A stretch of DNA of 37,975 bases from a virus (taxonomy: Duplodnaviria > Caudoviricetes). The DNA is taken from IMG/VR virus record IMGVR_UViG_3300032242_001019, positions 1-37,975 of that record; one strand, 5' to 3'. Position numbers and translations under genes: made by a program. The notes beneath the pieces were generated by a model. The model was not told where the DNA came from. It was given only the letters and a program-made list of their open reading frames with translations, and searched no databases. Below are positions 3,675-27,313 of this stretch, in pieces; the first letter of the stretch is position 1; each line of letters opens with the position of its first letter.

Positions 3675-6600
3675 ATGCCAACATACAGAATCACTGCGCC
3701 TGATGGTAAAACCTATCAGATTGATGGGCCTGCGGGAGCCTCTCAAGAGGATGTTAAAAATGAAGTAATGAGACAGAATCCTTATGCTGCCTATACTACA
3801 GAAGAATTAAAGAATGCACCTACTGCCTCAACCTCAACGGCAGACTACTTGCGTCAGCTTGGCCAAAGTGGTATTGGTGCAGTCAAATCAATTACTGATC
3901 TTTTTGGCGCTGGCAATGATTCATTAACAAAAACAAGCGAAGAGATTGGGAAAAAACTTTCCCCTGAACTTCAAGAAGAAGCTAGGATTAATCAAGAGCT
4001 ACAAGAAAGAGCCAAGGGTAAAGGCATATTATCAGAGCTTGCTGCTTCTACACGACCTGTTTTTCAGCATCCGTTTACATCTGCCTCTACTGCCGCAGTA
4101 TCTAGTCTTCCATTAATTGCCGGATCTTTTGCTTTACCTGAAACTTTAGGTGTTGCTGGCTTAAGTGCCGCTCGTGCAGGCATAGAGGGATTGATGAATC
4201 TTGGTAGTCAGAAAGGGCAAAACTACCAAACAGTTCATGATGAGGCCATCAGGCAAGGTAAGTCAGAACAAGAAGCCGAAGCACTTGGTCAACAAGCCGC
4301 AGAATACAGTCTTAAAAATACTCCTAACCTTGCTTTAGCATTTGGTACAGGAGCTATCGGTGGTGTCCTTGGCCCAGAGGCTAGGCTCGCCCAATACCTA
4401 AGACCCGCAGCCAAGGTGGCTGAAGAATCAGCTATCAAGAACATAGCCAAGCCAACCTTTGCCAAGGCTTTAGGGCAGACAGTTGGCGAGGGAGCTGGAA
4501 CTGAATTCCTACAAGGAGCAGGTTCACAATTAAGTTCCAATATTGCTTTGAAAGACGCAGGGTTTGATACACCTCTTATGGAAGGCGTTATGGGTGCTGG
4601 CGCTCATGATGCTTTGATTGGCGCTTTAATGGGTACAGCGGTATCGCCTGCTCAGTTGAGCAGTCTCAAGCGGGAATATGATGCTGACCAAGCCAAGATA
4701 TTGACTGAAGAAGCTGCCAAGAAACAGAAAGAAAGCGCAGATCTCATTGCCAAGTTCAATGAACAGAATCAAATTAAGCCTGAGCTTTTAGCTCTCCCTG
4801 CGCCTGCTCAGAAAATTGAAGGCAAACAAGCCGAACAGTCGCTACAAAATCCTTTGGGTAACTTTACCAAAGATGACCTAGCACCTGAAGTTGTTAAAGC
4901 AATTGATACACACAGGGCAGAGAATGGTAAGCCTCTTTTAAATAGTTATTCCATCGAAGACATTACCGATGCAATGCCTAGCCAATCGTTACATCCAGCC
5001 GACACTCGGGTCAAAAACCCAGAAGGCGAAAGAGCAGCTTTAAACGCATTGATTGCCAATAAGGTTGGCCACACCAATGAGAAGGTAACCCCGCAAGATG
5101 TGGTCAACAAGGCCATAGAGAAAAATGTAGATACCTCTGGCGAAGGCTTTAAAGACTTCCTAAGACGCACCACAGGTATTGGTGAGCTGAACATGATGAC
5201 GGACGGCCAGAGATTTGCCGCCCAACAAGCATTGCAGAACATGGAACCCCATACAGGGGAAGCCCCTCTTATCCTGCCCCGGGGTACAAATGCCACCCAT
5301 TTTGATGCAGATCAGCGTTTAAACAGCATCAATGCTTTAGACCAACTGGGTGGGAACATTAGCCAAGAGAAGGCTATTGAAACCATCAAGAAGACCACAG
5401 GACTACAAAGAGACCAAGATGCACAGCATATGATTGCTGACCTCGTGCGGTCTGGGGATTTTGATTTAAACAAGGAAAATGAGCTGGAGCAACCCAGTTC
5501 TACCTCGTATCTACCCAACGGATACCATATTGAAGAAGGCACGTTCAAGGAGGGCGAAGCTCCGGAACACTTCAAGATCATGGCCGCAGATAAGGAACTT
5601 GGGATAGCTGATACCCAAGAGGCCGCAGAAGAGAAAAGAAACAAATATTTAGAAACTCGGGCTAAGAAGTCTGAGAGTATTGATAAAGAGATAGAACAAA
5701 AGCAAGCCGCTCTTCAGAAAGCCAAAGATGATTTGGAAGCTATGGAGGCAATGGGTCAGGGCAGAACGCAGGAATACAAAAATGCATCTGGTGATTACGC
5801 TGGAAAGGTAGCCTCCACTGAAAAAGAAATTGGAGATTTAAACAGGATTAAAGCTGAGTTGGATCCTGAAGTCAATCCTTTATCAATCAAGGCTGGAAAC
5901 ATTGTACCGACAACCCGTAAAGGGTTCACGATTTTCAAGAACAATCAGTCTATTGGTACTTTCCCTGATAGAAGTGCGGCAGAGAAAACAATTGCCGCCA
6001 ACCTCAGTACCAAAGAGCTAGAGCAGTTAACAGGCGATAAACGCAGGCGTGGCTTTGCTCGTTTGGCTGAACAAGAGCTTAATGACAGGGTAACAACTGG
6101 CATCAAGGTTCGTGTGACCAAAGAGTTTGAACAAGCCGCTCCCGAGCTAGGTAAACAATTAGAAGCCATGTTGGCTAAGTTTGGCTTGAAGGGTGTGGGC
6201 TTAAAGCTCATGAATACCCTTGGTGGCAACGAAGGTGAGTATGCACAGAGTCTAATTAAGATAGCCTTGGATATCAAGGATCCAGTTGGTGTATTGCGCC
6301 ATGAATCTATTCATGCATTGAAAGAGCTAGGGTTCTTTACCGAGAACCAATGGAATGCTTTGAGACGCATGGCCAAGGATAAATGGATACAGGAATACCT
6401 CAAGGACAAACCCTTTTCTGAAGGCAAATCCCGTTATGACGCATACATGGAGATGTACAAGGGGGATATGAATGCCATAGAGGAGGAGGCTATAGCCGAT
6501 GCCTTTAGGGATTATGCCGAGAAGGGCAGCCCACCCGGGATGATTGCTGCGCTGTTGAAGCGTTTAAACCAATTCTTTGAAGCCCTGCGTAATGTTCTAA

Positions 6601-9600
6601 CCGGGAATGGATTCAACACCGCAGAGGATATCTTTGAAAAGATTGAGAAGGGTGAGCTTGCATCTTCTAAACAAGGCAAAGGAGAAACTAAGGCAAGCCT
6701 CAAGACTCCATTGTCCACCAGAGAGATCATGGAGCAGAACGATCAGTTTGCTCAGGCAGAACTTGGTTTAAACACAGAAAAAGCTAAAGGCAAGACTGGT
6801 GTAAACAACGTCCGGGATATTGCTAAAGCTTTAAACGCTCAGACAGTTGGTGAAGAGGGCGCAATGAACCGCCTAAGCCACACCGTCAAAGATGAAGACA
6901 GAATTGCAAAAGCAATGGCTGACGAAGTTGGTTATCAGTTAAGAGCTACTGCTAAGACAGGAACAGGTTTAGGGTGGTACTCCAATAACTATCCCAACGC
7001 AGTCAAAATGTTATCTCGTAGATTCCCAGAGCTTGAGAACAACAAACATGCTAGATCGGTATTTTCTGCGCTTGTTGCTGTAACCTCTAATGGGGAAAGA
7101 GTAGCTAAGAACATTGACAATGCAATTAAATTGTATTCAAAGCTTAGAGATGGTAAACCTTTGGTTGCTATGGGCAACCGCCGTGCGTCTGCTTTGGATA
7201 AAAATTTAATAAACATTGAGAATTTATTACGTAAGTACGGCACTGACTTTGAGAAAGAATTACTTAAAGAGATCACTGTCAAAGACATGAATGCATATCT
7301 GCGTTCTATTGGTGAAGAATCAGATGCCAGCTACTTAGCTAATACGGTCATTCCATCAGCCGCTATTCACTTTGGCCCTAAGCTTGGCGCTTTCTACGCC
7401 AACCTGTCCGGTTCAGAGGGTTACCTCACAATGGACTTATGGTGGACTAGATCTATCAACCGTATGCGTGGTTTGTTAATACCAAAGGCTACAAAAGCAT
7501 CTCTTGATAAGTTTAGAGAAATGCTTGATATGCCTGACGCAAGCGTTAATGATTTGGTTGAAGAGTCTATTCCACTAAGAAACATATACGAAGAGAATGG
7601 TTTTGTAACTGATCTTGAGTTTCTTGCTGGTGGCAAAGAACCTGCCAAGAAAGTTCTTAAAGAAGCATGGTTTAAACGAGCTGAAGCCGCTGCTGGTGAT
7701 GCCTACGATCAATTCTTGTTTGAACACAACTTACTTAAGATGGCTAACACCATCTATAAGAATGAATTTGAAATGTTGGAAGAGGCTCCATTTTCTGCAA
7801 CAGATAGAGCTTTCATGTACAAGGCGGCACGTAAAGCCCAAGCTTTACTGCGTGGTGAAGGAGTTGACTTAACTCTTGCAGACATACAAGCCGCCCTGTG
7901 GTACTATGAAAAACGTTTATACGCAAAACTTAGCGGGAGGAAAGCAGATGACATCGGATACGAAGAAGCCATTATCAAACAAGCCAATCAGGGTAATAGA
8001 TCCGTCAGACCCAGTGTGGTCTTCACTGGACAACAAAACGGCGGGAATGTCTCCACAGGAGCGGTTCAACTTTCTGGACAACCTAGTTCAGCAACTGTCA
8101 AAGCCAGTCTCAAAGGAATAGTAGCAGAGGTTGCACCGAACCCTGACCAAGAGGTAGCCGCCCGTTGGCGCTTAATGAACAGCGCAGACAAACAACAAAC
8201 TACTGAGGTGGTTGCTCGCCGTGTCATACCTAAGTTATTTGATGACATGGGTTTTAAAGGCTGGTCTTACAACATTTCTTCTGGACGTTATGAGGGTGAG
8301 CAAAACCCCAATATCATCATCAGTGCGCCGGATAGTGCAACTGACGAAGAGTTAAATGAATTTGCTAAAGTTATAGGTAATGTATTTGACCAAAAGGCTA
8401 TGGTTACCTATGACGAAGACAACACAACGTCAGACTCTCAAAATGGATTTGTATCAGTCATCATTCCAGATGGAATGGATGATCAAACATTAACCAATCT
8501 TAGAGATCATATTGCCAAGGAAGTGCCTGAAGCAAATGCAGACACAGTACGTGATGGGAAAATTCACTTTGGAAACTTTTCTAAGTACACAGACAATGAA
8601 ATCTCCGATGAACAATATTACAACAATATAAAAGATGCTATTGCTAATTTTGATTACGATGGTATTATTGATGTTCAAAAACCAATTCAATTCCATAGCG
8701 AGTTGATTGAACCTACAAACAGGGAAGAGTATTTAGAAGGAACAAGATATGGCACAGATCAGGGAAGTAGAGAGAAAGCCGGGGGAGACGATCTTTGGAG
8801 GCAAGGGCGTAATAGGCTTGAAGCCATTTCAGAAGATGCAATCAAACTCAGGAACAATTGGATCGAATCCGGAACGAAGTTTAGCGAGAGCGGCAGAGCA
8901 GGCGCTACTACGTTCCCCAATGTTGAAGCAGAATACGGAACCCCAATAAAGAATGCGTCAAGCGCAGTCGGTATTCATTTCAGCAAACAAAAACGCAATA
9001 CATTAATATCTAAGTTTTTTGGCACTGGTCTGAAAGGGCTAGAAGGCGAACGTCTCAGCGAGCCTTCCAACAGAGACATCAAAGACCGCATCTATTTCTA
9101 TGTAGATAAAGGCAAAGGCATTGTTCCAGAAGCTGGAGTTGGCGGTGCAGCGCATGTTGTTCGTTTAAACAATCTTTATGATACAGTCAAAGATCCTTTG
9201 GGGATTATCAAAACCAATAAAGGTAATGGTGCAAATGAACGTGCATCTAATCTAGAGCGTAAGATCAAAAACGCAGGGTTTGATGGATACATGTTTATGG
9301 ATCCGTTGCAAAACCAAGGCTATGCCGTATTGATTGGCGAACACAACATATCTGTACCTCTAAGCAAAGCCAGCTTAAAAGCTCCTGATACACCTGCGTT
9401 TAAACGTTTCTTTGGAGACAGCAAGGTTGTAGACAAAGCTGGCAAGCCAATGGTTATGTACCATTCAACATTTGCTTTCATGAAAGAAGGCCCAGAAAAA
9501 GGTAATCTTTTTACCGAGTTTAAACTTGGAGCAGATGGTAAGCTAGGCGAAGGTATATACAGTACATCTATACCGGAGTATGCAGAAAAGTATGCCCAAG

Positions 9601-12500
9601 ACGGGGCTATGATGCCTTTATGGGTTCATATAGAAAACCCATTTGAAATGAATGTTGGTAAAGACGCTCTTAGAAAAGAAAGAGACGGCCTTTATTTAAC
9701 TCATGAAGCAGGTGTTTCTTTCAAAACACAACTTGATGATAAAGTTAAAGAACTAACCAAAGGCAAAAAACGCCTAATGGATTTGGATGGTGATCAAGTT
9801 AGAGCTTTGTTTGAGAAAAATGGCTATGACGGTCTTATGATTAAAGATCCTGATGGCAACATCATAGAAGCCAATGCGTTTACACCCAATCAATTGAAGT
9901 CGGCCACAGGTAACAAAGGCACTTACGACTTCAACAAAGCAGACATTAGAGCCAGTCTTGGCACTCTTTTAAATGGCATACCCAACGCTGCTGGCTTGGC
10001 AGATCGTTTAAACACTGTTACTCCCGGGCGGGAGGATGTAGGCTACGCCCGCAGAATGATTGAGGCAATCAATCCCAAGAACTTTGGTGACTTCCGTACC
10101 AACTTCCTAAACCGTTATAACCAGTTGGCCGTCCATGACAAGATGCTTGCCAAGTCCAAAGGGCTTGTTAAGCTGATGGCCGATGCTAGTGCTGAATCTG
10201 CGGCTTTGATGTCTGACCTAGCGTCCGGCATTGCGGCAGAAGCCATTGGCAAGAACGGCGGTGTCCCTGTTTACAAGAATGGTTATACCTCCATAGACAA
10301 ATCTACCAAAGGCTTGGTGGAGATCTTTGCCCCGCTTGCCAAGTTAAATGACCCCAATATGTACAGGTTGTACCAGTTTTGGGCTGGATCTAAACGGGCT
10401 AGAAGGTTGATCAAAGAAGGCCGTGAAGAGAACTACACCCCCGCAGATCTTCAACATGCCAAAGAACTAGAGAAGAAATACGGTCATGTCTTTAATAAAG
10501 TCCATGATGACTGGATCAAGTACAACAACGGCCTTGTCAAATACCTCGTTGACACGGGTGTGCTATCACCTGAAAAGGCCAAAGAGTTCTCCAAGTACTC
10601 CGACTACATTCCATTCTATCGTCAGGTCGATGGCGAAACGACTGTAGGCCCACAACTATTCCAGTCCATGACTGGGGTCAAGGCTCCCAAGAAACTCAAG
10701 GGCGGTGAAGGGCCACTGGCCGATTTCCTAGAGACTGTGGTCAGAAATACCCATGCCGCTATCCAGTCTGGTACAAAGAATGTGGCGGCTACAAGGGCTG
10801 TCAAGAACGCAGAAGAACTTGGTCTGGCTGAGAAAGTGCCGTTTAAACAAGACAGCTTCAATACCGTGAAGATCTTCGAGAACGGCAAGGAGTCCTATTA
10901 CAACGTGGCTGATCCGCTTTTGGTTCAATCCATGCAGGGTTTAAACCTACCTGACCTGCCATTCTTGGGTATCCTTGCTGCGCCTGCCAATTGGTTACGG
11001 AACATGGTAACCAAAGACCCCGGATTTATGTTGGCCAACATGATGAAAGATTCGATCTCGGCCTACATTACAAGTGGGTCAAACATGACCCCAGTCATTG
11101 ATACAGTCAAGCATTTCACCACTGCAATGGCAGGCACTAACCCAACCATAGAAAAGCTCAGAGCCGCAGGGATAGGTGGTGGCCATTTGGGTGGGGATAT
11201 TGAAGCCGCAGGCAGGGACTTGGCCAAGAAGCTACGCAAGGAAGCTGGAACTAAGACAACTCTAGAGAAGGGGCTTACCCCGTTTACATCTCTATGGGAA
11301 GGATTGGAGCATGGCACAGAAGCATCTGACCTAGCTACCCGTGCGGCCATCTACCAAAAGACAATGGATGAGACAGGCAATGAGGCCGAGGCCATTTACC
11401 AAGCCTTGGAGGTAATGAACTTCTACAGGAAAGGGGCTAACCCTATCATCCGTATTTTGTCTGCGGTGACTCCATTCCTGAACGCAAGGATCCAAGGTTT
11501 GGATGTGTTCTACCGTGCAGGGTTTGCACCAATCTTTGACAAGAATGCAACAGAAGCTGACAAGGCTAGACAAAAAGCTTTCTTTGTCCGTGGTGCAACC
11601 ATCATGGCATTGTCTGCGGCTTACTGGGCAATGACCCATGATGATGATGATTACAAGAAACAGGAACAAGAAACTCGGGATAACAACTGGCTAGTCCCTT
11701 CCCTCGGAGTTAAGATCCCAATCCCATTTGAAGTGGGCTTTATATTCAAGGTTATCCCTGAGAGAGCTTTAGAGTATTTCTATGGCAATGACACAGGCAA
11801 GGATTTCCTCAAATCAATGGAGCGGGGGATCACCTCTACCCTGTCTATCCAAGCACCGCAGATCTTCCAGCCTGCGCTTGAAACCATGACCAATTACTCA
11901 TTCTTTACCGGACGGGCGATTGTTCCCCAAGGCTTACAGAATGTAGCCCCCGAATATCAAGTTGGCCCATCCACAACCAAAACCTTTGAGACCATAGGTA
12001 AAGAACTGGGTCAGTCCCCCATCATGCTTGAGCATCTATGGAAAGGCTACACAGGAACGATGGGGATGTACATGGTGGATGCTATAGATTCCATCATCAA
12101 TTTAAACAGCGATGTTCCTAAAGCGTCCAAGCGCTTTGAGCAAATGCCATTCATCAAGAGGTTTGCCCTAGATCCAGAGGCACGGGGGTCGGTATCTTCC
12201 TATTATGATCTTAAAGACTCAGTAGATCAGGCGGTGCGTACAGCCAATCTATTAGAGAAGACGGGTAACTACCAAGACATCGGCGAATACATGCAAGAGA
12301 ACGCAGGACTCCTAGCCACGGATGACTACGTTAAATCTATGGACAAGAGCATGAAGGATCTTCAGAACGAGGCCACAATCGTTCGTTCGTCAGGCATGAG
12401 TGCTGATGAGAAGAGGGATGCATTGAAGGCCATCGGTGAGGCACAGAATGCCTTAACGGCCAATGTCCAGTATCTTAAGAAGATGATGTCTGAACGATAG
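3675..12500 (+). CDS. Large polyvalent virion protein: HExxH metallopeptidase, HhH-glycosylase-like, SAM-lyase-like and two ART-like modules, plus an LPD38-like C-terminus
   Basis: 2941 aa. HESIH at aa 876. GPKLGAFYANL.G...TMDLW...QAALW. An ART-PolyVal-type SKVVD..GKPMVMYH...GIY...GYDG...NQLKSATGN.GT. A C-terminal NF.RKG...PFLNARIQG...IPIPFE.G...NYSFFTGR.IVP pattern as in LPD38. Confidence 0.8.
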   Translation: MPTYRITAPDGKTYQIDGPAGASQEDVKNEVMRQNPYAAYTTEELKNAPTASTSTADYLRQLGQSGIGAVKSITDLFGAGNDSLTKTSEEIGKKLSPELQEEARINQELQERAKGKGILSELAASTRPVFQHPFTSASTAAVSSLPLIAGSFALPETLGVAGLSAARAGIEGLMNLGSQKGQNYQTVHDEAIRQGKSEQEAEALGQQAAEYSLKNTPNLALAFGTGAIGGVLGPEARLAQYLRPAAKVAEESAIKNIAKPTFAKALGQTVGEGAGTEFLQGAGSQLSSNIALKDAGFDTPLMEGVMGAGAHDALIGALMGTAVSPAQLSSLKREYDADQAKILTEEAAKKQKESADLIAKFNEQNQIKPELLALPAPAQKIEGKQAEQSLQNPLGNFTKDDLAPEVVKAIDTHRAENGKPLLNSYSIEDITDAMPSQSLHPADTRVKNPEGERAALNALIANKVGHTNEKVTPQDVVNKAIEKNVDTSGEGFKDFLRRTTGIGELNMMTDGQRFAAQQALQNMEPHTGEAPLILPRGTNATHFDADQRLNSINALDQLGGNISQEKAIETIKKTTGLQRDQDAQHMIADLVRSGDFDLNKENELEQPSSTSYLPNGYHIEEGTFKEGEAPEHFKIMAADKELGIADTQEAAEEKRNKYLETRAKKSESIDKEIEQKQAALQKAKDDLEAMEAMGQGRTQEYKNASGDYAGKVASTEKEIGDLNRIKAELDPEVNPLSIKAGNIVPTTRKGFTIFKNNQSIGTFPDRSAAEKTIAANLSTKELEQLTGDKRRRGFARLAEQELNDRVTTGIKVRVTKEFEQAAPELGKQLEAMLAKFGLKGVGLKLMNTLGGNEGEYAQSLIKIALDIKDPVGVLRHESIHALKELGFFTENQWNALRRMAKDKWIQEYLKDKPFSEGKSRYDAYMEMYKGDMNAIEEEAIADAFRDYAEKGSPPGMIAALLKRLNQFFEALRNVLTGNGFNTAEDIFEKIEKGELASSKQGKGETKASLKTPLSTREIMEQNDQFAQAELGLNTEKAKGKTGVNNVRDIAKALNAQTVGEEGAMNRLSHTVKDEDRIAKAMADEVGYQLRATAKTGTGLGWYSNNYPNAVKMLSRRFPELENNKHARSVFSALVAVTSNGERVAKNIDNAIKLYSKLRDGKPLVAMGNRRASALDKNLINIENLLRKYGTDFEKELLKEITVKDMNAYLRSIGEESDASYLANTVIPSAAIHFGPKLGAFYANLSGSEGYLTMDLWWTRSINRMRGLLIPKATKASLDKFREMLDMPDASVNDLVEESIPLRNIYEENGFVTDLEFLAGGKEPAKKVLKEAWFKRAEAAAGDAYDQFLFEHNLLKMANTIYKNEFEMLEEAPFSATDRAFMYKAARKAQALLRGEGVDLTLADIQAALWYYEKRLYAKLSGRKADDIGYEEAIIKQANQGNRSVRPSVVFTGQQNGGNVSTGAVQLSGQPSSATVKASLKGIVAEVAPNPDQEVAARWRLMNSADKQQTTEVVARRVIPKLFDDMGFKGWSYNISSGRYEGEQNPNIIISAPDSATDEELNEFAKVIGNVFDQKAMVTYDEDNTTSDSQNGFVSVIIPDGMDDQTLTNLRDHIAKEVPEANADTVRDGKIHFGNFSKYTDNEISDEQYYNNIKDAIANFDYDGIIDVQKPIQFHSELIEPTNREEYLEGTRYGTDQGSREKAGGDDLWRQGRNRLEAISEDAIKLRNNWIESGTKFSESGRAGATTFPNVEAEYGTPIKNASSAVGIHFSKQKRNTLISKFFGTGLKGLEGERLSEPSNRDIKDRIYFYVDKGKGIVPEAGVGGAAHVVRLNNLYDTVKDPLGIIKTNKGNGANERASNLERKIKNAGFDGYMFMDPLQNQGYAVLIGEHNISVPLSKASLKAPDTPAFKRFFGDSKVVDKAGKPMVMYHSTFAFMKEGPEKGNLFTEFKLGADGKLGEGIYSTSIPEYAEKYAQDGAMMPLWVHIENPFEMNVGKDALRKERDGLYLTHEAGVSFKTQLDDKVKELTKGKKRLMDLDGDQVRALFEKNGYDGLMIKDPDGNIIEANAFTPNQLKSATGNKGTYDFNKADIRASLGTLLNGIPNAAGLADRLNTVTPGREDVGYARRMIEAINPKNFGDFRTNFLNRYNQLAVHDKMLAKSKGLVKLMADASAESAALMSDLASGIAAEAIGKNGGVPVYKNGYTSIDKSTKGLVEIFAPLAKLNDPNMYRLYQFWAGSKRARRLIKEGREENYTPADLQHAKELEKKYGHVFNKVHDDWIKYNNGLVKYLVDTGVLSPEKAKEFSKYSDYIPFYRQVDGETTVGPQLFQSMTGVKAPKKLKGGEGPLADFLETVVRNTHAAIQSGTKNVAATRAVKNAEELGLAEKVPFKQDSFNTVKIFENGKESYYNVADPLLVQSMQGLNLPDLPFLGILAAPANWLRNMVTKDPGFMLANMMKDSISAYITSGSNMTPVIDTVKHFTTAMAGTNPTIEKLRAAGIGGGHLGGDIEAAGRDLAKKLRKEAGTKTTLEKGLTPFTSLWEGLEHGTEASDLATRAAIYQKTMDETGNEAEAIYQALEVMNFYRKGANPIIRILSAVTPFLNARIQGLDVFYRAGFAPIFDKNATEADKARQKAFFVRGATIMALSAAYWAMTHDDDDYKKQEQETRDNNWLVPSLGVKIPIPFEVGFIFKVIPERALEYFYGNDTGKDFLKSMERGITSTLSIQAPQIFQPALETMTNYSFFTGRAIVPQGLQNVAPEYQVGPSTTKTFETIGKELGQSPIMLEHLWKGYTGTMGMYMVDAIDSIINLNSDVPKASKRFEQMPFIKRFALDPEARGSVSSYYDLKDSVDQAVRTANLLEKTGNYQDIGEYMQENAGLLATDDYVKSMDKSMKDLQNEATIVRSSGMSADEKRDALKAIGEAQNALTANVQYLKKMMSER
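7948..8121 (+). CDS. Candidate overprinted 57-aa gene in the +1 frame of the polyvalent protein
   Basis: GGAGG (7936-7940) lies 7 nt before ATG. Product MTSDTKKPLSNKPIRVIDPSDPVWSSLDNKTAGMSPQERFNFLDNLVQQLSKPVSKE overlaps a low-complexity linker of the main frame. Confidence 0.4.
   Translation: MTSDTKKPLSNKPIRVIDPSDPVWSSLDNKTAGMSPQERFNFLDNLVQQLSKPVSKE
8749..8949 (+). CDS. Candidate overprinted 66-aa gene in the +1 frame of the polyvalent protein
   Basis: AGAAGGA lies 7 nt before ATG, and the ORF overlaps a second inter-module linker. Confidence 0.35.
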   Translation: MAQIREVERKPGETIFGGKGVIGLKPFQKMQSNSGTIGSNPERSLARAAEQALLRSPMLKQNTEPQ

Positions 12501-23778: not shown

Positions 23779-25326
23779 TTATGCTACTAGTTTGATTTGT
23801 TTAAACGAGGCGTTTGCCAAGTCCCCAATGTCTCTGATACACACGTTGTTCTTGTATACACTCGACACGTCCAACTCGATGCCCACGCCCACTGTTGTGA
23901 TGCCAAGGTTATTGCCCTGCTTGATCTGACTTCTTACCTCATCCTTCCAACCATTGCCATCTGTCAAGACGAATGCAATCTTACGGGTCTCGGGGCGAGC
24001 GTTCAGGATCTCATGGGCATAACGTATCGCAAAGTAATCATTAGTTGAGTAGTTGGTATACAAGCGTGACAAGATCTGCTTGGCCTTGGCCACTGGGGTG
24101 TTGAATGGGACAAGCACTGAGGTGCGGAAATGAAAGGCAAGGATCTGCACGGCCACGCCTGCCTGAGCGAGGGTCTCATACAATGCCACGCAAGTCTTGA
24201 CTGCATTTCTCGCCCGTGACGCAGTCATGGATCCTGACGCATCGAGGACAATCACAACCGCAGAATCAATACCGCCCTCTTCATGATGGCGTTTAAACAC
24301 ACGCACATTACCCGTTGCAATTGATGCGAGCGCAGAGGAGTTGATCTGCCCTGCCTTGCGATTCAATTGGAATTCGTCAAGACCTGACTTCTCGAATAGT
24401 TGACGCACCTCATGACGCAACTTTGAGGGCACGACCACTGTAGTGTCAATGTTGACCGCTGGGTGAGTGTGATCCCCTGCATCTCCGAGTCCTGCGCTCT
24501 TGTCATATGATCCAATGCCTGCCTGACTCTCAGGAACCTCACAATTGGGCTCTGTTTCCCGTGCGTCTTGGCCATCGACTGGGGCGGTCGCCACGCCTTG
24601 ATCACCCTCGCCTGCACCCTCACCCTCACCCGATCCCGATTGATCGTTTGGAGCGTCTCCTGTGGCCTCCTGAGTGCCCTCCTCGCCCTTGCCTTGACCT
24701 TTGCCTTGACCCTTGTCTTGACCTTGTTCGGGTGACTGCTCAGGCAACTGTTTCAATTGCGACATGATCCACTCTGCAATTTTCAAAGTGTCATAGCTTG
24801 ACTTGGCACTGTCGATGCGAGCGCTCGCCTCATCAAATATTGGAGCGAGTCCCTGTGGCAGTGCGATTCGCTTGGCATAGCGTCTGCCGATGCAGGCGAA
24901 GAGCCAAGGATAATTACGGGGGTCATCCATGCCGTCCTCGCCTGCCTCAGCGATCATCTGATTGATCAGCTTGGCGAACACGCCTGCAATGTTGCCTGTC
25001 ATGCCATCGGCAATCGCTCTGCGCTCGATCCACACGTCCTCGACTGCATTGTGCAGTTGTCTCATGTATTGGGTTGTGGCCTTGACTGAGAAGTCGGTGT
25101 ATTTGACATGACACAATTCATGGATGACGAACCCAACATATCTGTCGAGAAAAGCCTGAGTCAAGACTGCATCATCTGCCACGTCTGCAAGCTTGACCTC
25201 GCCCTGCGAGTTGACGCAGGCAGTGGGGATATTGTCCCAAGTAATCCTACTGATTTTCAATGCACTATTGGCACTGATTTTGTTGAGGATCGACTCAACC
25301 CCTGCCTTGAATGTATGACCTCTCAT
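23779..25326 (-). CDS. vWA (MIDAS) protein with an N-terminal HExxH domain (CobT-like AAA+ partner)
   Basis: IHELCHVKYTDF...NAVEDVWIE, a G/Q/E-rich linker, VLDASGSM and LTDG. Confidence 0.85.
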   Translation of the reverse strand: MRGHTFKAGVESILNKISANSALKISRITWDNIPTACVNSQGEVKLADVADDAVLTQAFLDRYVGFVIHELCHVKYTDFSVKATTQYMRQLHNAVEDVWIERRAIADGMTGNIAGVFAKLINQMIAEAGEDGMDDPRNYPWLFACIGRRYAKRIALPQGLAPIFDEASARIDSAKSSYDTLKIAEWIMSQLKQLPEQSPEQGQDKGQGKGQGKGEEGTQEATGDAPNDQSGSGEGEGAGEGDQGVATAPVDGQDARETEPNCEVPESQAGIGSYDKSAGLGDAGDHTHPAVNIDTTVVVPSKLRHEVRQLFEKSGLDEFQLNRKAGQINSSALASIATGNVRVFKRHHEEGGIDSAVVIVLDASGSMTASRARNAVKTCVALYETLAQAGVAVQILAFHFRTSVLVPFNTPVAKAKQILSRLYTNYSTNDYFAIRYAHEILNARPETRKIAFVLTDGNGWKDEVRSQIKQGNNLGITTVGVGIELDVSSVYKNNVCIRDIGDLANASFKQIKLVA

Positions 25327-26717
25327 GATTGCACCCCCATGTACTTGTTGAAAATTTCAGCGTTTAAACAGGCAGACCCAATGCCCCGTAAGGCGATGCC
25401 CGAGTCCTCGACCTGACGATTGACCATCACTGATTCCCATGCCTCGACCATGCCAAGGTAAGGTACGGCCTGAATGAACCCGATCACTTGACGAATGGAT
25501 GGTGCATCGAGTATGTCCCCCGTCTCGACCTTGGCACGTGCGGTATGCACGGCCTTGATCACGTGAGTGGCCACTTCCCGATGGCATCCTGTATGCTTGA
25601 CCACCGCATCGATTTCAAGATGCACGGGCAGGAAAGTAAATTTAATCACGACAGTGAATCGATCGCCCAACGCAGAATTAGTAGTGCGTGTCCCTGCATA
25701 TCGGCCAGTGGTGTCACCATTGAGCAAAGTATTGTCTGCCCCGAAAATCATCACGCCCTCGGCCTTGCTCCACACCTGACCCCCGTATGTCACCTTGGCA
25801 TTGGGTTCGAGAAAACCATTCAAGGGTGCTAACTCACCCTGATCTGCGTTGGTGATCTCATCAAGCAGGATCACTGTCGAGGGGGCAGTGTAAGCAGTGA
25901 GGAAGTCCCCACGTTTAAACACTGTCGCCCCGTTCTCAAGACCCACATCACCCAAATAATCCGATGCAGTGGTGTACTTGTGGAAGTTATAACGCATGAA
26001 CCCACGGCCTGTACGTGCTGAGAATTGCTCGGCAGTCTGCGATTTCCCTGTGCCCTTCTCGCCCCCGAACCACGTATTGCGACCCGTGTCCTGAGCGAAT
26101 GCGAGGGTTCGGAGGATCGACTCAGTCCAAATAAAGCAGGGGTCAATTGCAGGGGCAGACGCATCATTGTAGATATCGAATTCAAAGGGGAGGTCGATCC
26201 CGAAAACATCAAGGCAGGACTTGCGATCCACTTTGATCACAGGGGTGAGGTTGGCGACCTTGGCCTCAGACCCTGTTGCAATGACGGCCTGTTTAAACGG
26301 GGCAAAGGCGTTGTCGATCAGGGTCTCAAGCTTGCGATTGACCTCTGCCTGATCCACTCCAACGCTGACCTCGGCAATGTCGGCCAGTGAGTCCTCAATC
26401 CTCTGAATGGCCTTGGACTGCACGTCTAGGGTGTTGGTCAATGCCTTGATTTTCTCGACCGATTCCAACGCCACGGCCTGAGCATTATTGGCCACGGCCT
26501 CAAGCGCAGGGTTGGCCGTACTGACAACGGGGGCGAAAGGTAATGCCTGCTTTATGTCATCAAGGGTCAACTTCCCTGCATCGATTTGGCCATCAAGCCA
26601 TTGGATCATGACTGACTTATCTGTCGGTGGTCTTGGATCACCTGAAAATTTCAGGTAAGCCCCCGTGATTGTGGCGAGTGGCAGGGTCACCATAATTTGT
26701 TTGTTGACGATTCCCAT
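25323..26717 (-). CDS. MoxR/CobS/CbbQ-like AAA+ ATPase
   Basis: Walker A GEKGTGKS, Walker B ILLDEI, NT...Y.GT...N.AL.DRF and SIRQ; start MGIVNK with a GAGGA RBS. Confidence 0.85.
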   Translation of the reverse strand: MGIVNKQIMVTLPLATITGAYLKFSGDPRPPTDKSVMIQWLDGQIDAGKLTLDDIKQALPFAPVVSTANPALEAVANNAQAVALESVEKIKALTNTLDVQSKAIQRIEDSLADIAEVSVGVDQAEVNRKLETLIDNAFAPFKQAVIATGSEAKVANLTPVIKVDRKSCLDVFGIDLPFEFDIYNDASAPAIDPCFIWTESILRTLAFAQDTGRNTWFGGEKGTGKSQTAEQFSARTGRGFMRYNFHKYTTASDYLGDVGLENGATVFKRGDFLTAYTAPSTVILLDEITNADQGELAPLNGFLEPNAKVTYGGQVWSKAEGVMIFGADNTLLNGDTTGRYAGTRTTNSALGDRFTVVIKFTFLPVHLEIDAVVKHTGCHREVATHVIKAVHTARAKVETGDILDAPSIRQVIGFIQAVPYLGMVEAWESVMVNRQVEDSGIALRGIGSACLNAEIFNKYMGVQS

Positions 26718-26728
26718 GATTTTGATCC

Positions 26729-27313
26729 TCAAACTAAGGTTAAAGCTTGGCCATCGATCGGGCAGGCAGGCAGGCGAGGGTTGCCATACTGGTCATATGC
26801 CCACTTGGCAGTCAGGCGAATGGTATAACCGCAGGCACACATGGCCTTGAGCATCCTAGTGCCCTGCGTCTTGCGTGTGGCGTATGACAGTTGAGCGTGA
26901 GGGTAGTCACCGAGTGACTGAATGATTGCCCCGTAGCGTGTCATGAAGTCGAGCGCACCCGATGTGGCCTTGTATCCACGGGTTGCAGAGGGGACTAAGC
27001 CCATTGCATCGGCAATGCGTTTAAACATTGCACCATGATTCATTGCCCCGTTCGTGGTGTGGCAAAGCTCATGGATCACACACTCAGCGACTGCCTGCGG
27101 ATCGGCCAACTCGGGGGAGATTAGAATCTCATAGTGGTTATCGCCACTATTTTGGCAGGGAAAGCACTCGCCAATGGCACGTGAGCGCTTGGCGTTGAGA
27201 GGGAAACCGCAGGTGATGCGAATGGCCTGTGGTAAGGGTGACCCGTAAAGGTCAAACATGGGTCGCAACTCTTGAATGAGTGCGACAAGATACTCTTCAC
27301 GTGTTGAAAACAT
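26729..27313 (-). CDS. SprT-like zinc metalloprotease with a C-terminal zinc ribbon
   Basis: IGEC...EILISP...HELCH...HG..FK..A..MGL and CACGY.IR...CP; GGAGG RBS before MFSTREEY. Confidence 0.75.
   Translation of the reverse strand: MFSTREEYLVALIQELRPMFDLYGSPLPQAIRITCGFPLNAKRSRAIGECFPCQNSGDNHYEILISPELADPQAVAECVIHELCHTTNGAMNHGAMFKRIADAMGLVPSATRGYKATSGALDFMTRYGAIIQSLGDYPHAQLSYATRKTQGTRMLKAMCACGYTIRLTAKWAYDQYGNPRLPACPIDGQALTLV

Follow-up and report, generated by a model that had tools for sequence, protein, structure and literature searches.

The virus record IMGVR_UViG_3300032242_001019 raises the question of whether two short open reading frames (ORFs), nested in the +1 frame of its giant gene, are genes in their own right and, if so, what their products do. 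The window analysed here is the whole record of 37,975 bases, in which Pfam recognises terminase, capsid and primase-helicase genes (positions of the features under study are given in Table 1). The two ORFs, designated ORF-A and ORF-B, lie directly behind two globular parts of the giant protein, a DNA-glycosylase-like module 1 and an S-adenosylmethionine (SAM)-lyase-like module 2. An earlier note on this DNA had proposed that they encode antidotes that travel with swappable toxic modules and protect the producing cell. From the comparison of related sequences we conclude that ORF-A and ORF-B are conserved +1-frame genes under selection, and we put the probability that their products are cognate inhibitors, made beside the virion protein, at roughly 0.62.

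The coordinates, lengths, reading frame and Shine–Dalgarno (SD) spacing given for the two ORFs in the earlier note proved accurate. Taken from the window alone, the pattern is weak: in 200 synonymous-codon shuffles of the giant gene, at least two qualifying ORFs (+1 frame, ATG start, at least 50 amino acids, SD score of −5 or better) arose in 6.5% of runs, so that conservation in relatives has to decide. An automatic list of SD-led ORFs nested in relatives ran to 265 and included chance families inside module cores; an SD sequence and an open frame are therefore insufficient as proof. As controls we took two further +1 ORFs in the giant gene, starting at 6607 and 10486; their ATG was found in 0/40 and 0/21 relatives, respectively.

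For ORF-A, a scan for module 1 gave 100 loci, of which the best 80 were kept, with one truncated locus skipped. The anchored set comprised 80 sequences including the window, 66 of them unique, two near-identical copies having been excluded. The close set consisted of 27 unique sequences at 57% identity or above, the window included; these loci share kinship, and their counts are not independent events. In all 27, the Asp codon that spells the ORF-A ATG is GAT, compared with 255 of 541 Asp codons elsewhere, and an SD score of −4 or better was found at 27/27 sites as against 29/265 control ATGs. Across ORF-A, no +1 stop occurs in 1377 codons, compared with 23 in 432 codons just upstream. Divergence at codon positions 1, 2 and 3 is 0.24, 0.14 and 0.57 in module 1 and 0.45, 0.35 and 0.24 in the ORF-A overlap, a reversal that matches exactly selection acting on the +1 frame. 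Over the overlap, amino-acid identity is 0.55 in the +1 frame and 0.42 in the main frame, and in its second half the values are 0.50 and 0.28. Among more distant loci (30–48% identity), the +1 frame is stop-free over codons 30–59 in 33/37, compared with a background of 130/367 core windows open in distant loci. The frame is also open in all eight complete loci in bacterial genome assemblies (a ninth locus is partial), and a profile search with ORF-A among predicted proteins matched 73 clusters, a few of which are repeat-protein noise.

Module 2 was found at 40 loci, 32 of which were aligned with the window to give 33 sequences; near-identical, duplicate and truncated copies were excluded, and one duplicate pair remains. 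A start codon is present at the ORF-B site in 33/33 sequences, with module 2 identity as low as about 17%. Where the main frame has Tyr at this site, the codon is TAT in 30/30 cases, compared with 68/173 Tyr codons elsewhere, and sequences with Asn, His or Arg in place of the main-frame Tyr still have the start codon. In three relatives (L041, L075 and L121) the ORF-A start has been created afresh elsewhere, with a strong SD. That start codons are kept while the main-frame residue changes, or are re-made, fits initiation. An SD score of −4 or better precedes ORF-B in 27/33 sequences (controls, 21/168), and the +1 frame is stop-free for 45 codons in 33/33, as against 3/33 just upstream. The conserved residues 1–30 carry an F-G-x-G motif. 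Over codons 1–25, amino-acid identity is 0.42 in the +1 frame versus 0.37 in the main frame and codon-position divergence is flattened; over codons 26–42, the main frame is the more conserved (0.40 versus 0.34). Eleven further metagenome loci carry ORF-B, ten in the +1 frame and one frame-shifted against the alignment anchor.

Both ORFs thus combine an open frame, a conserved start codon and ribosome-binding site, and amino-acid selection in the +1 frame, as expected of overprinted genes; the conserved SD-ATG and +1 selection that the earlier note had proposed looking for in homologous modules were found for both. Its description of the surroundings needs amending in two respects. Each ORF does lie directly behind its module, but the start of ORF-A sits within the last helix of module 1 rather than at its end. 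In addition, the ORFs had been described as overlapping main-frame linkers, whereas the main frame is also conserved beneath the central part of ORF-B, so this region is truly dual-coding and no pure linker. That the ORFs are chance open frames in a low-complexity linker would fit the shuffling result and the naturally stop-poor +1 frame seen in the distant-locus background, and is rejected by the conservation of both ORFs and the lack of it at the control ORFs, which leaves it a negligible probability.

Since SD-like sequences can stimulate frameshifts, the +1 frames might instead be reached by programmed frameshifting, or the signals might be mere translation-control elements, the products then being alternative tails or unimportant. 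In 7 of the 27 close loci no +1 stop is found in the 16 codons upstream of ORF-A, as frameshifting would allow; in the other 20 a +1 stop lies just upstream. Moreover, the ATG is fixed at a synonymous site (27/27 for ORF-A; 30/30 for ORF-B) and re-made elsewhere, and the amino-acid motifs of both ORFs are conserved in the +1 frame. We consider this explanation very unlikely.

Neither peptide had a match in Pfam, PHROGs, NCBIfam or PADLOC, and neither module 1 nor module 2 gave anything at or above the curated cut-offs of these collections. A word-index protein search returned nothing for ORF-A and one match for ORF-B, and a protein atlas gave no usable match for either peptide, from which neither absence nor novelty follows. 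Solved structures searched by sequence likewise gave nothing significant, and among sequencing runs no RNA data set was listed. The modules were compared by their predicted structures. In a wide structural search, the best match of module 1 was the 8-oxoG glycosylase Tm1821 (Z 10.9, root-mean-square deviation (rmsd) 3.9, 198 residues aligned); the top 24 rows are all HhH-type (helix-hairpin-helix) folds, and the next row has Z 4.9. The fold is shared by PaMx11 gp46, a DNA-modifying relative (Z 7.7). Module 1 spans about 420 amino acids with insertions, is 7–14% identical to solved members, and its model found nothing at E 0.001 with Foldseek against the PDB. From the fold, from invariance and from a Lys–Asp spacing of 18 residues, which we take to be that of EndoIII, K221 and D239 are probably the catalytic pair. 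A lysine nucleophile is a mark of bifunctional glycosylases, according to the part of PMC3260424 drawn on here. Module 1 resembles the defence HhH glycosylases Dag1 and Dag2 in its fold and in its invariant Lys, Asp and adjacent Trp, and Dag1 needs its Lys, Asp and Trp (bioRxiv 10.1101/2025.10.29.685425, sections drawn on here). It differs from them in being phage-borne and in its size and insertions, and its glycosylase activity is putative.

The model of module 2 superimposes on the SAM lyase Svi3-3 (6zm9) with Z 9.5 and rmsd 2.7 over 101 residues, a score tied with those of efflux-pump domains at Z 9.8. With Foldseek, it matched the T3 and Svi3-3 SAM lyases with probabilities of 0.92–1.00 and E values of 3.7e-3 to 3.4e-2, the T3 enzyme giving probability 1.00 and E 3.7e-3. 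As a monomer model it has the PII-like alpha/beta fold of SAM lyases, enzymes that form trimers with active sites between subunits; an additional ferredoxin-like domain sets it apart from the phage lyases Svi3-3 and T3 and from SAM-AMP lyases. Gly56, Tyr58 and Gln104 of the Svi3-3/T3 enzymes are mirrored, by pattern mapping, in Gly59, Tyr61 and Gln95 of module 2, and G59 and Q95 are conserved in 33/33 sequences. The position of the Svi3-3 catalytic Glu69 corresponds, by pattern only, to Asn66 (32/33) or to the variable position 64, and the invariant Glu7 may stand in for the catalytic residue. Module 2 is thus SAM-lyase-like at the level of its modelled fold, with a putative activity. The two names used in the earlier note, glycosylase-like and SAM-lyase-like, accordingly hold at fold level. 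The sections of PMC7877911 drawn on here report that SAM lyases are toxic when expressed, a point that counts for the antidote reading; those sections and the corresponding ones of PMC12255297 describe no inhibitor peptide.

A structure prediction of peptide plus preceding module, the check suggested in the earlier note, was run for ORF-A. The predicted complex of ORF-A with module 1 scored 0.72, compared with 0.00 for the best of three controls, and ORF-A with an unrelated protein scored 0.00. Of 157 solved complexes, 116 attained the score mark applied, as did 2 of 215 mismatched pairs, counts that apply only approximately to the alignments used. The runs share at least 89% of contacts, and the partner has a predicted local distance difference test (pLDDT) value of at least 72. 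Since searching by sequence turned up no solved relative of module 1, the model is unlikely to have reproduced a like complex that it had already seen. On module 1, the predicted interface covers residues 160–239 and 356–386, and with them G219, K221, Y235–D239, P357 and R363, each invariant in 52/52 sequences. On ORF-A, it takes in residues 13–51, including D18, D21, W24, R39 and L43, which are conserved in the +1 frame; residues 1–12, the shadow of the module 1 tail, lie outside it, and the DNA encoding the module 1 surface does not overlap the DNA encoding the ORF-A surface. The model supports the predicted binding of ORF-A to module 1 across the invariant Lys and Asp, over the predicted glycosylase active site.

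The same complex would be expected if the peptides were folding, packaging or ejection chaperones that bind the modules as travelling caps rather than to protect the cell. Such a role would suit ejection proteins, which need storage and release, and the contacts of lowest error fall on a variable helical patch (residues 164–217) next to the active site. The interface, however, also takes in the invariant Lys/Asp loop, and a chaperone role would not account for peptides at some enzyme modules only; we hold it to be fairly unlikely.

Peptide-seeded scans placed ORF-A matches directly behind module 1 in 34/34 cases, in a search that is partly circular since one of its patterns was derived from the module tail, and ORF-B matches directly behind module 2 in 13/13. 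A seed from the distant clade gave a further 8/8 matches behind module 1, on contigs previously known to hold it. In these scans, neither peptide was found behind another module, and the module that follows ORF-A varies widely between relatives. As the earlier note had observed, ORF-A ends at a KASLK boundary: in the window its stop falls six codons past the start of the motif, and in 15 of 24 close motif-bearing loci it falls within −4 to +11 codons of it, while in most other close loci the ORF-A frame runs on into a further peptide. The claim that the peptides travel with their modules thus stands for these matches, whatever module follows, and fails for 3 of 37 distant copies of module 1, which lack ORF-A. 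A gene nested in this way cannot part physically from its neighbour, so that linkage by itself is no proof, and the peptides readily join into trains; they might accordingly be small phage proteins with a separate task, directed at the host or against defences, that occupy linker space and are carried along with the module. Their absence behind any other module in these scans, and the success of ORF-A in the complex test when paired with module 1 and not with an unrelated protein, make this quite unlikely.

In one relative, a portal-fused polyvalent protein (L044:1-6784), the main frame stops at the end of the HhH module, with four stops in the next 80 codons, and an ORF-A homologue heads the next gene, in the order toxin, then immunity. 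That next gene also encodes a zeta-toxin-like domain (Pfam PF06414), behind which an SD-led +1 ORF is nested at 5271-5459. The arrangement in L044 is that of the MuF polymorphic toxins, in which a virion-associated enzyme domain is followed by a short ORF, as are 89.4% of 191 muf toxin genes (Jamet et al. 2017, PMC5576092, part drawn on here). In MuF toxins, however, the toxin is C-terminal and the partner a separate downstream gene, whereas the present modules are internal, the main frame continues past them, and one gene carries several nested peptides. This likeness raises the prospect that the peptides are inhibitors serving kin immunity, guarding an infected or lysogenic cell from the enzymes of a superinfecting relative. 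The order seen in L044 and the small ORF that mostly follows the toxins of temperate-phage MuF proteins (PMC5576092, same part) would suit such a role, as would a copy of module 1 in the isolate genome of Polynucleobacter sp. UB-Piko-W3 (L124). On the other hand, the ORFs lie inside a structural-type gene and would be read from late mRNA, no search for a separate promoter having been made; overall, kin immunity seems unlikely. In the Polynucleobacter genome, module 1 is part of a giant gene, likely in a prophage, and the +1 frame behind it is open, but a start with a good SD was not found there.

We thus favour the reading of ORF-A and ORF-B as cognate inhibitors, which can be set out as follows. 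Both +1 frames are selected, each with its conserved start codon and ribosome-binding site. Ribosomes would start internally on the giant gene mRNA and make the peptides alongside the virion protein. Residues 13–51 of ORF-A are predicted to clamp module 1 where its helix-hairpin-helix lysine and conserved aspartate lie, and ORF-B likely has a like role on module 2. Enzymes that would cut DNA and split SAM-type metabolites would in this way be kept silent in late infection; unchecked, they would harm the producing cell or the progeny DNA. The giant protein would then be packaged and injected without the peptides, or would shed them, and the enzymes would act in the next host. From the architecture, an antidote placed over the linker would turn module and antidote into a single cassette, open to shuffling at a KASLK-type boundary with the main frame unbroken.

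Several observations weigh against this reading. At distant ORF-A loci, the start site varies and the SD is often weak, and a profile built from the close clade only finds the +1 peptide in just 7/37 of them. The three distant copies of module 1 without ORF-A at the site (L046, L067 and L055) have Lys and Asp intact, which indicates that the peptide is not obligatory, and ORF-A was not found elsewhere in these records either (43–88% complete). While a small gene beside, and linked to, an enzyme-coding sequence is what a toxin–immunity pair would show, a partner wherever the active enzyme occurs is not seen in these 3 of 37 modules, from incomplete records. Hydrophobic patches show no clear difference between modules with and without ORF-A. 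The L044 arrangement is a single locus, and the start of its ORF-A homologue has no SD (score 0.3). No invariant Glu occurs where the catalytic Glu of module 2 would be expected, so module 2 is perhaps no harmful SAM lyase; ORF-B, in its second half, may go with module 3. Within the giant gene, no nested gene accompanies the ART-PolyVal domain or module 3. Finally, two other +1 peptide families track the module that follows them: one with the motif DPIEDAM stands just before a GNAT-like module in 8/8 cases, and one with the motif PETE-x-D precedes one unnamed module in 6/6. The modules without a nested gene and these other families make the rule of an antidote after each toxic module too simple, and the wording 'each swappable toxic module' in the earlier note was too wide.

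The DPIEDAM peptide occurs in L017 (at 4406), L018, L019, L021, L023, L024, L025 and L029, and also in L177; it is joined there either with ORF-A or with a different short peptide, and a further nested ORF lies after the GNAT-like module in L018 (at 5111). The name GNAT-like presumably fits this module, the recognition being our own; it had no Pfam match. The PETE-x-D peptide occurs in L073 (at 4238), L076 (at 1857), L127 (at 4388), L020, L026 and L102, in several of them with a strong SD of its own, and in L179 a similar motif lies behind the distant HhH module. The giant genes of relatives contain at least three other nested +1 families that are conserved and have SDs (L108 at 2798, L109 at 2792, L111, L117 and L118; L016 at 812, L026, L037 and L039; L108 at 1118). 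In the predicted proteins P0016, P0013 and P0009, ORF-A is chained in one frame with up to three further nested-peptide families, and these are possibly multi-antidote proteins. Free-standing copies had been suspected in P0009, P0016, P0062 and P0074, for which contig scans gave only nested relatives or nothing. In the GenBank stretches of the Limnohabitans phage DC33 (PQ492659) and of MW202640, only the giant gene is annotated, and SD-led +1 ORFs without annotation follow these modules in both (L177 at 4073 and 4922 for DC33; L179 at 4130 and about 4799 for MW202640), the ORF-B family being present in MW202640. DC33, a cultured phage, shares the architecture but differs in its peptide families. 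A +1 ORF after a distant module in Octadecabacter virus BD1 is of low complexity and was set aside as unconvincing.

In a wider form of the inhibitor reading, giant phage virion proteins would have a further gene layer that annotation has left out: every dangerous enzyme cassette would have an inhibitor of its own, encoded out of frame on the linker that precedes or follows it, and such inhibitors would join up as multi-antidote chains. On this view ORF-A would represent a natural inhibitor acting at the active site of an HhH-fold DNA glycosylase, and uncharacterised domains that are self-toxic weapons could be recognised by their nested gene. We advance this tentatively, at somewhat less than even odds.

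The giant protein has two Pfam domains above cut-off, LPD38 and ART-PolyVal. It is a large multidomain protein with LPD and conflict-enzyme domains, as phage polyvalent proteins are, and the matches by fold among viral proteins are polyvalent proteins.

Table 1. Features of the giant gene and its nested ORFs, in window positions
Feature	Position	Strand	Basis or remark
Giant polyvalent protein gene, 2941 amino acids	3675-12500	+	ORF
Module 1, HhH (EndoIII/Ogg-like) DNA-glycosylase fold, main frame	6720-7982	+	model pLDDT 91
Lys221 of module 1, putative catalytic residue in the predicted ORF-A interface	7380-7382	+	invariant 52/52
Asp239 of module 1, putative catalytic residue in the predicted ORF-A interface	7434-7436	+	invariant 52/52
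Ribosome-binding site of ORF-A, GGAGG, 7 nt before ATG	7936-7940	+	sequence; SD score −10.3
ORF-A, 57 amino acids, +1 frame of giant gene; predicted inhibitor of module 1	7948-8121	+	+1 selection, profile matches, complex score
KASLK module-boundary motif, main frame	8100-8114	+	also at amino acids 1006, 1898 and 2092
Module 2, SAM-lyase-like N-terminal half and second ferredoxin-like domain, main frame	8109-8756	+	model pLDDT 92
Ribosome-binding site of ORF-B, AGAAGGA, 7 nt before ATG	8735-8741	+	sequence
ORF-B, 66 amino acids, +1 frame; putative partner of module 2	8749-8949	+	conservation; residues 1-30 form the core
Conserved main-frame stretch under mid ORF-B, dual-coding	about 8814-8870	+	amino-acid identity; probable amphipathic helix from sequence pattern
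Module 3	8940-9359	+	unmatched in Pfam and PADLOC; no nested ORF behind it
ART-PolyVal domain	9432-9923	+	Pfam PF18760, E 1.4e-15; no nested ORF
LPD38 domain	11643-12155	+	Pfam PF18857, E 3.7e-37

A KASL[KG]-type motif at amino acids 1006, 1476, 1898 and 2092 divides the modules of the giant protein. At the module borders, [KR]ASL[KG] repeats are encoded at 6690-6704, 8100-8114, 9366-9380 and 9948-9962, and in relatives the border motif takes the form [KR][LFYA]SL[RK]; it is possibly a protease site or a recombination join. In a strain near-identical to the window (L001; 8748-9360 compared), 70/411 bases of module 3 differ as against 24/1227 of module 1, and ORF-A differs at 0/175 bases; the excess divergence of module 3 suggests, from these base counts, recent recombination. 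Elsewhere in the window, genes for an AAA_5/MoxR-like ATPase and a vWA (CobT-like) protein adjoin on the minus strand at 23779-26732, a pair common in phages.

By analogy with phi24B gp47, an LPD38 protein of similar size that is present in virions and is a proposed ejection protein (bioRxiv 10.64898/2026.04.10.717836, sections drawn on here), the giant gene product is likely a virion or ejection protein that is packaged and injected. The phage polyvalent proteins of Iyer et al. (2017, PMC5512222) are likewise giant and multidomain, with LPD38 and ART-PolyVal, as far as the part drawn on here describes them. That part, like the corresponding part of the phi24B gp47 account, describes no nested genes or cognate inhibitors, and the words 'overlap' and 'glycosylase' have 0 occurrences in the main text of PMC5512222. 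The arrangement reported here was not described in the open-licence PMC and bioRxiv literature searched, taken without supplements or subscription journals.

Two further systems offer a comparison. The Rz1 gene of phage lambda is embedded out of frame in Rz on the same strand, and its product binds the product of its host gene; ORF-A and ORF-B are likewise nested on the same strand, with binding to the host gene product predicted here for ORF-A. The spanins, however, are two halves of one lysis machine, whereas the nested product here is a predicted single-domain inhibitor that would move with its module as a cassette. The phage glycosylase inhibitors Ugi and p56 target the host uracil glycosylase, whose fold differs from HhH. 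The feature would work like a toxin–immunity pair and is built like an embedded gene, and is a strict member of neither class.

If the inhibitor reading is true, it would answer how a phage builds an enzyme-loaded virion protein without wrecking the cell that produces it, and would explain how such modules can be shuffled safely. Whole protein families have been missed by annotation, as the unannotated ORFs in the GenBank stretches checked illustrate. The peptides would supply co-expression partners that the cloning and study of these domains probably require, and ORF-A would offer a small predicted inhibitor of the HhH glycosylase fold.

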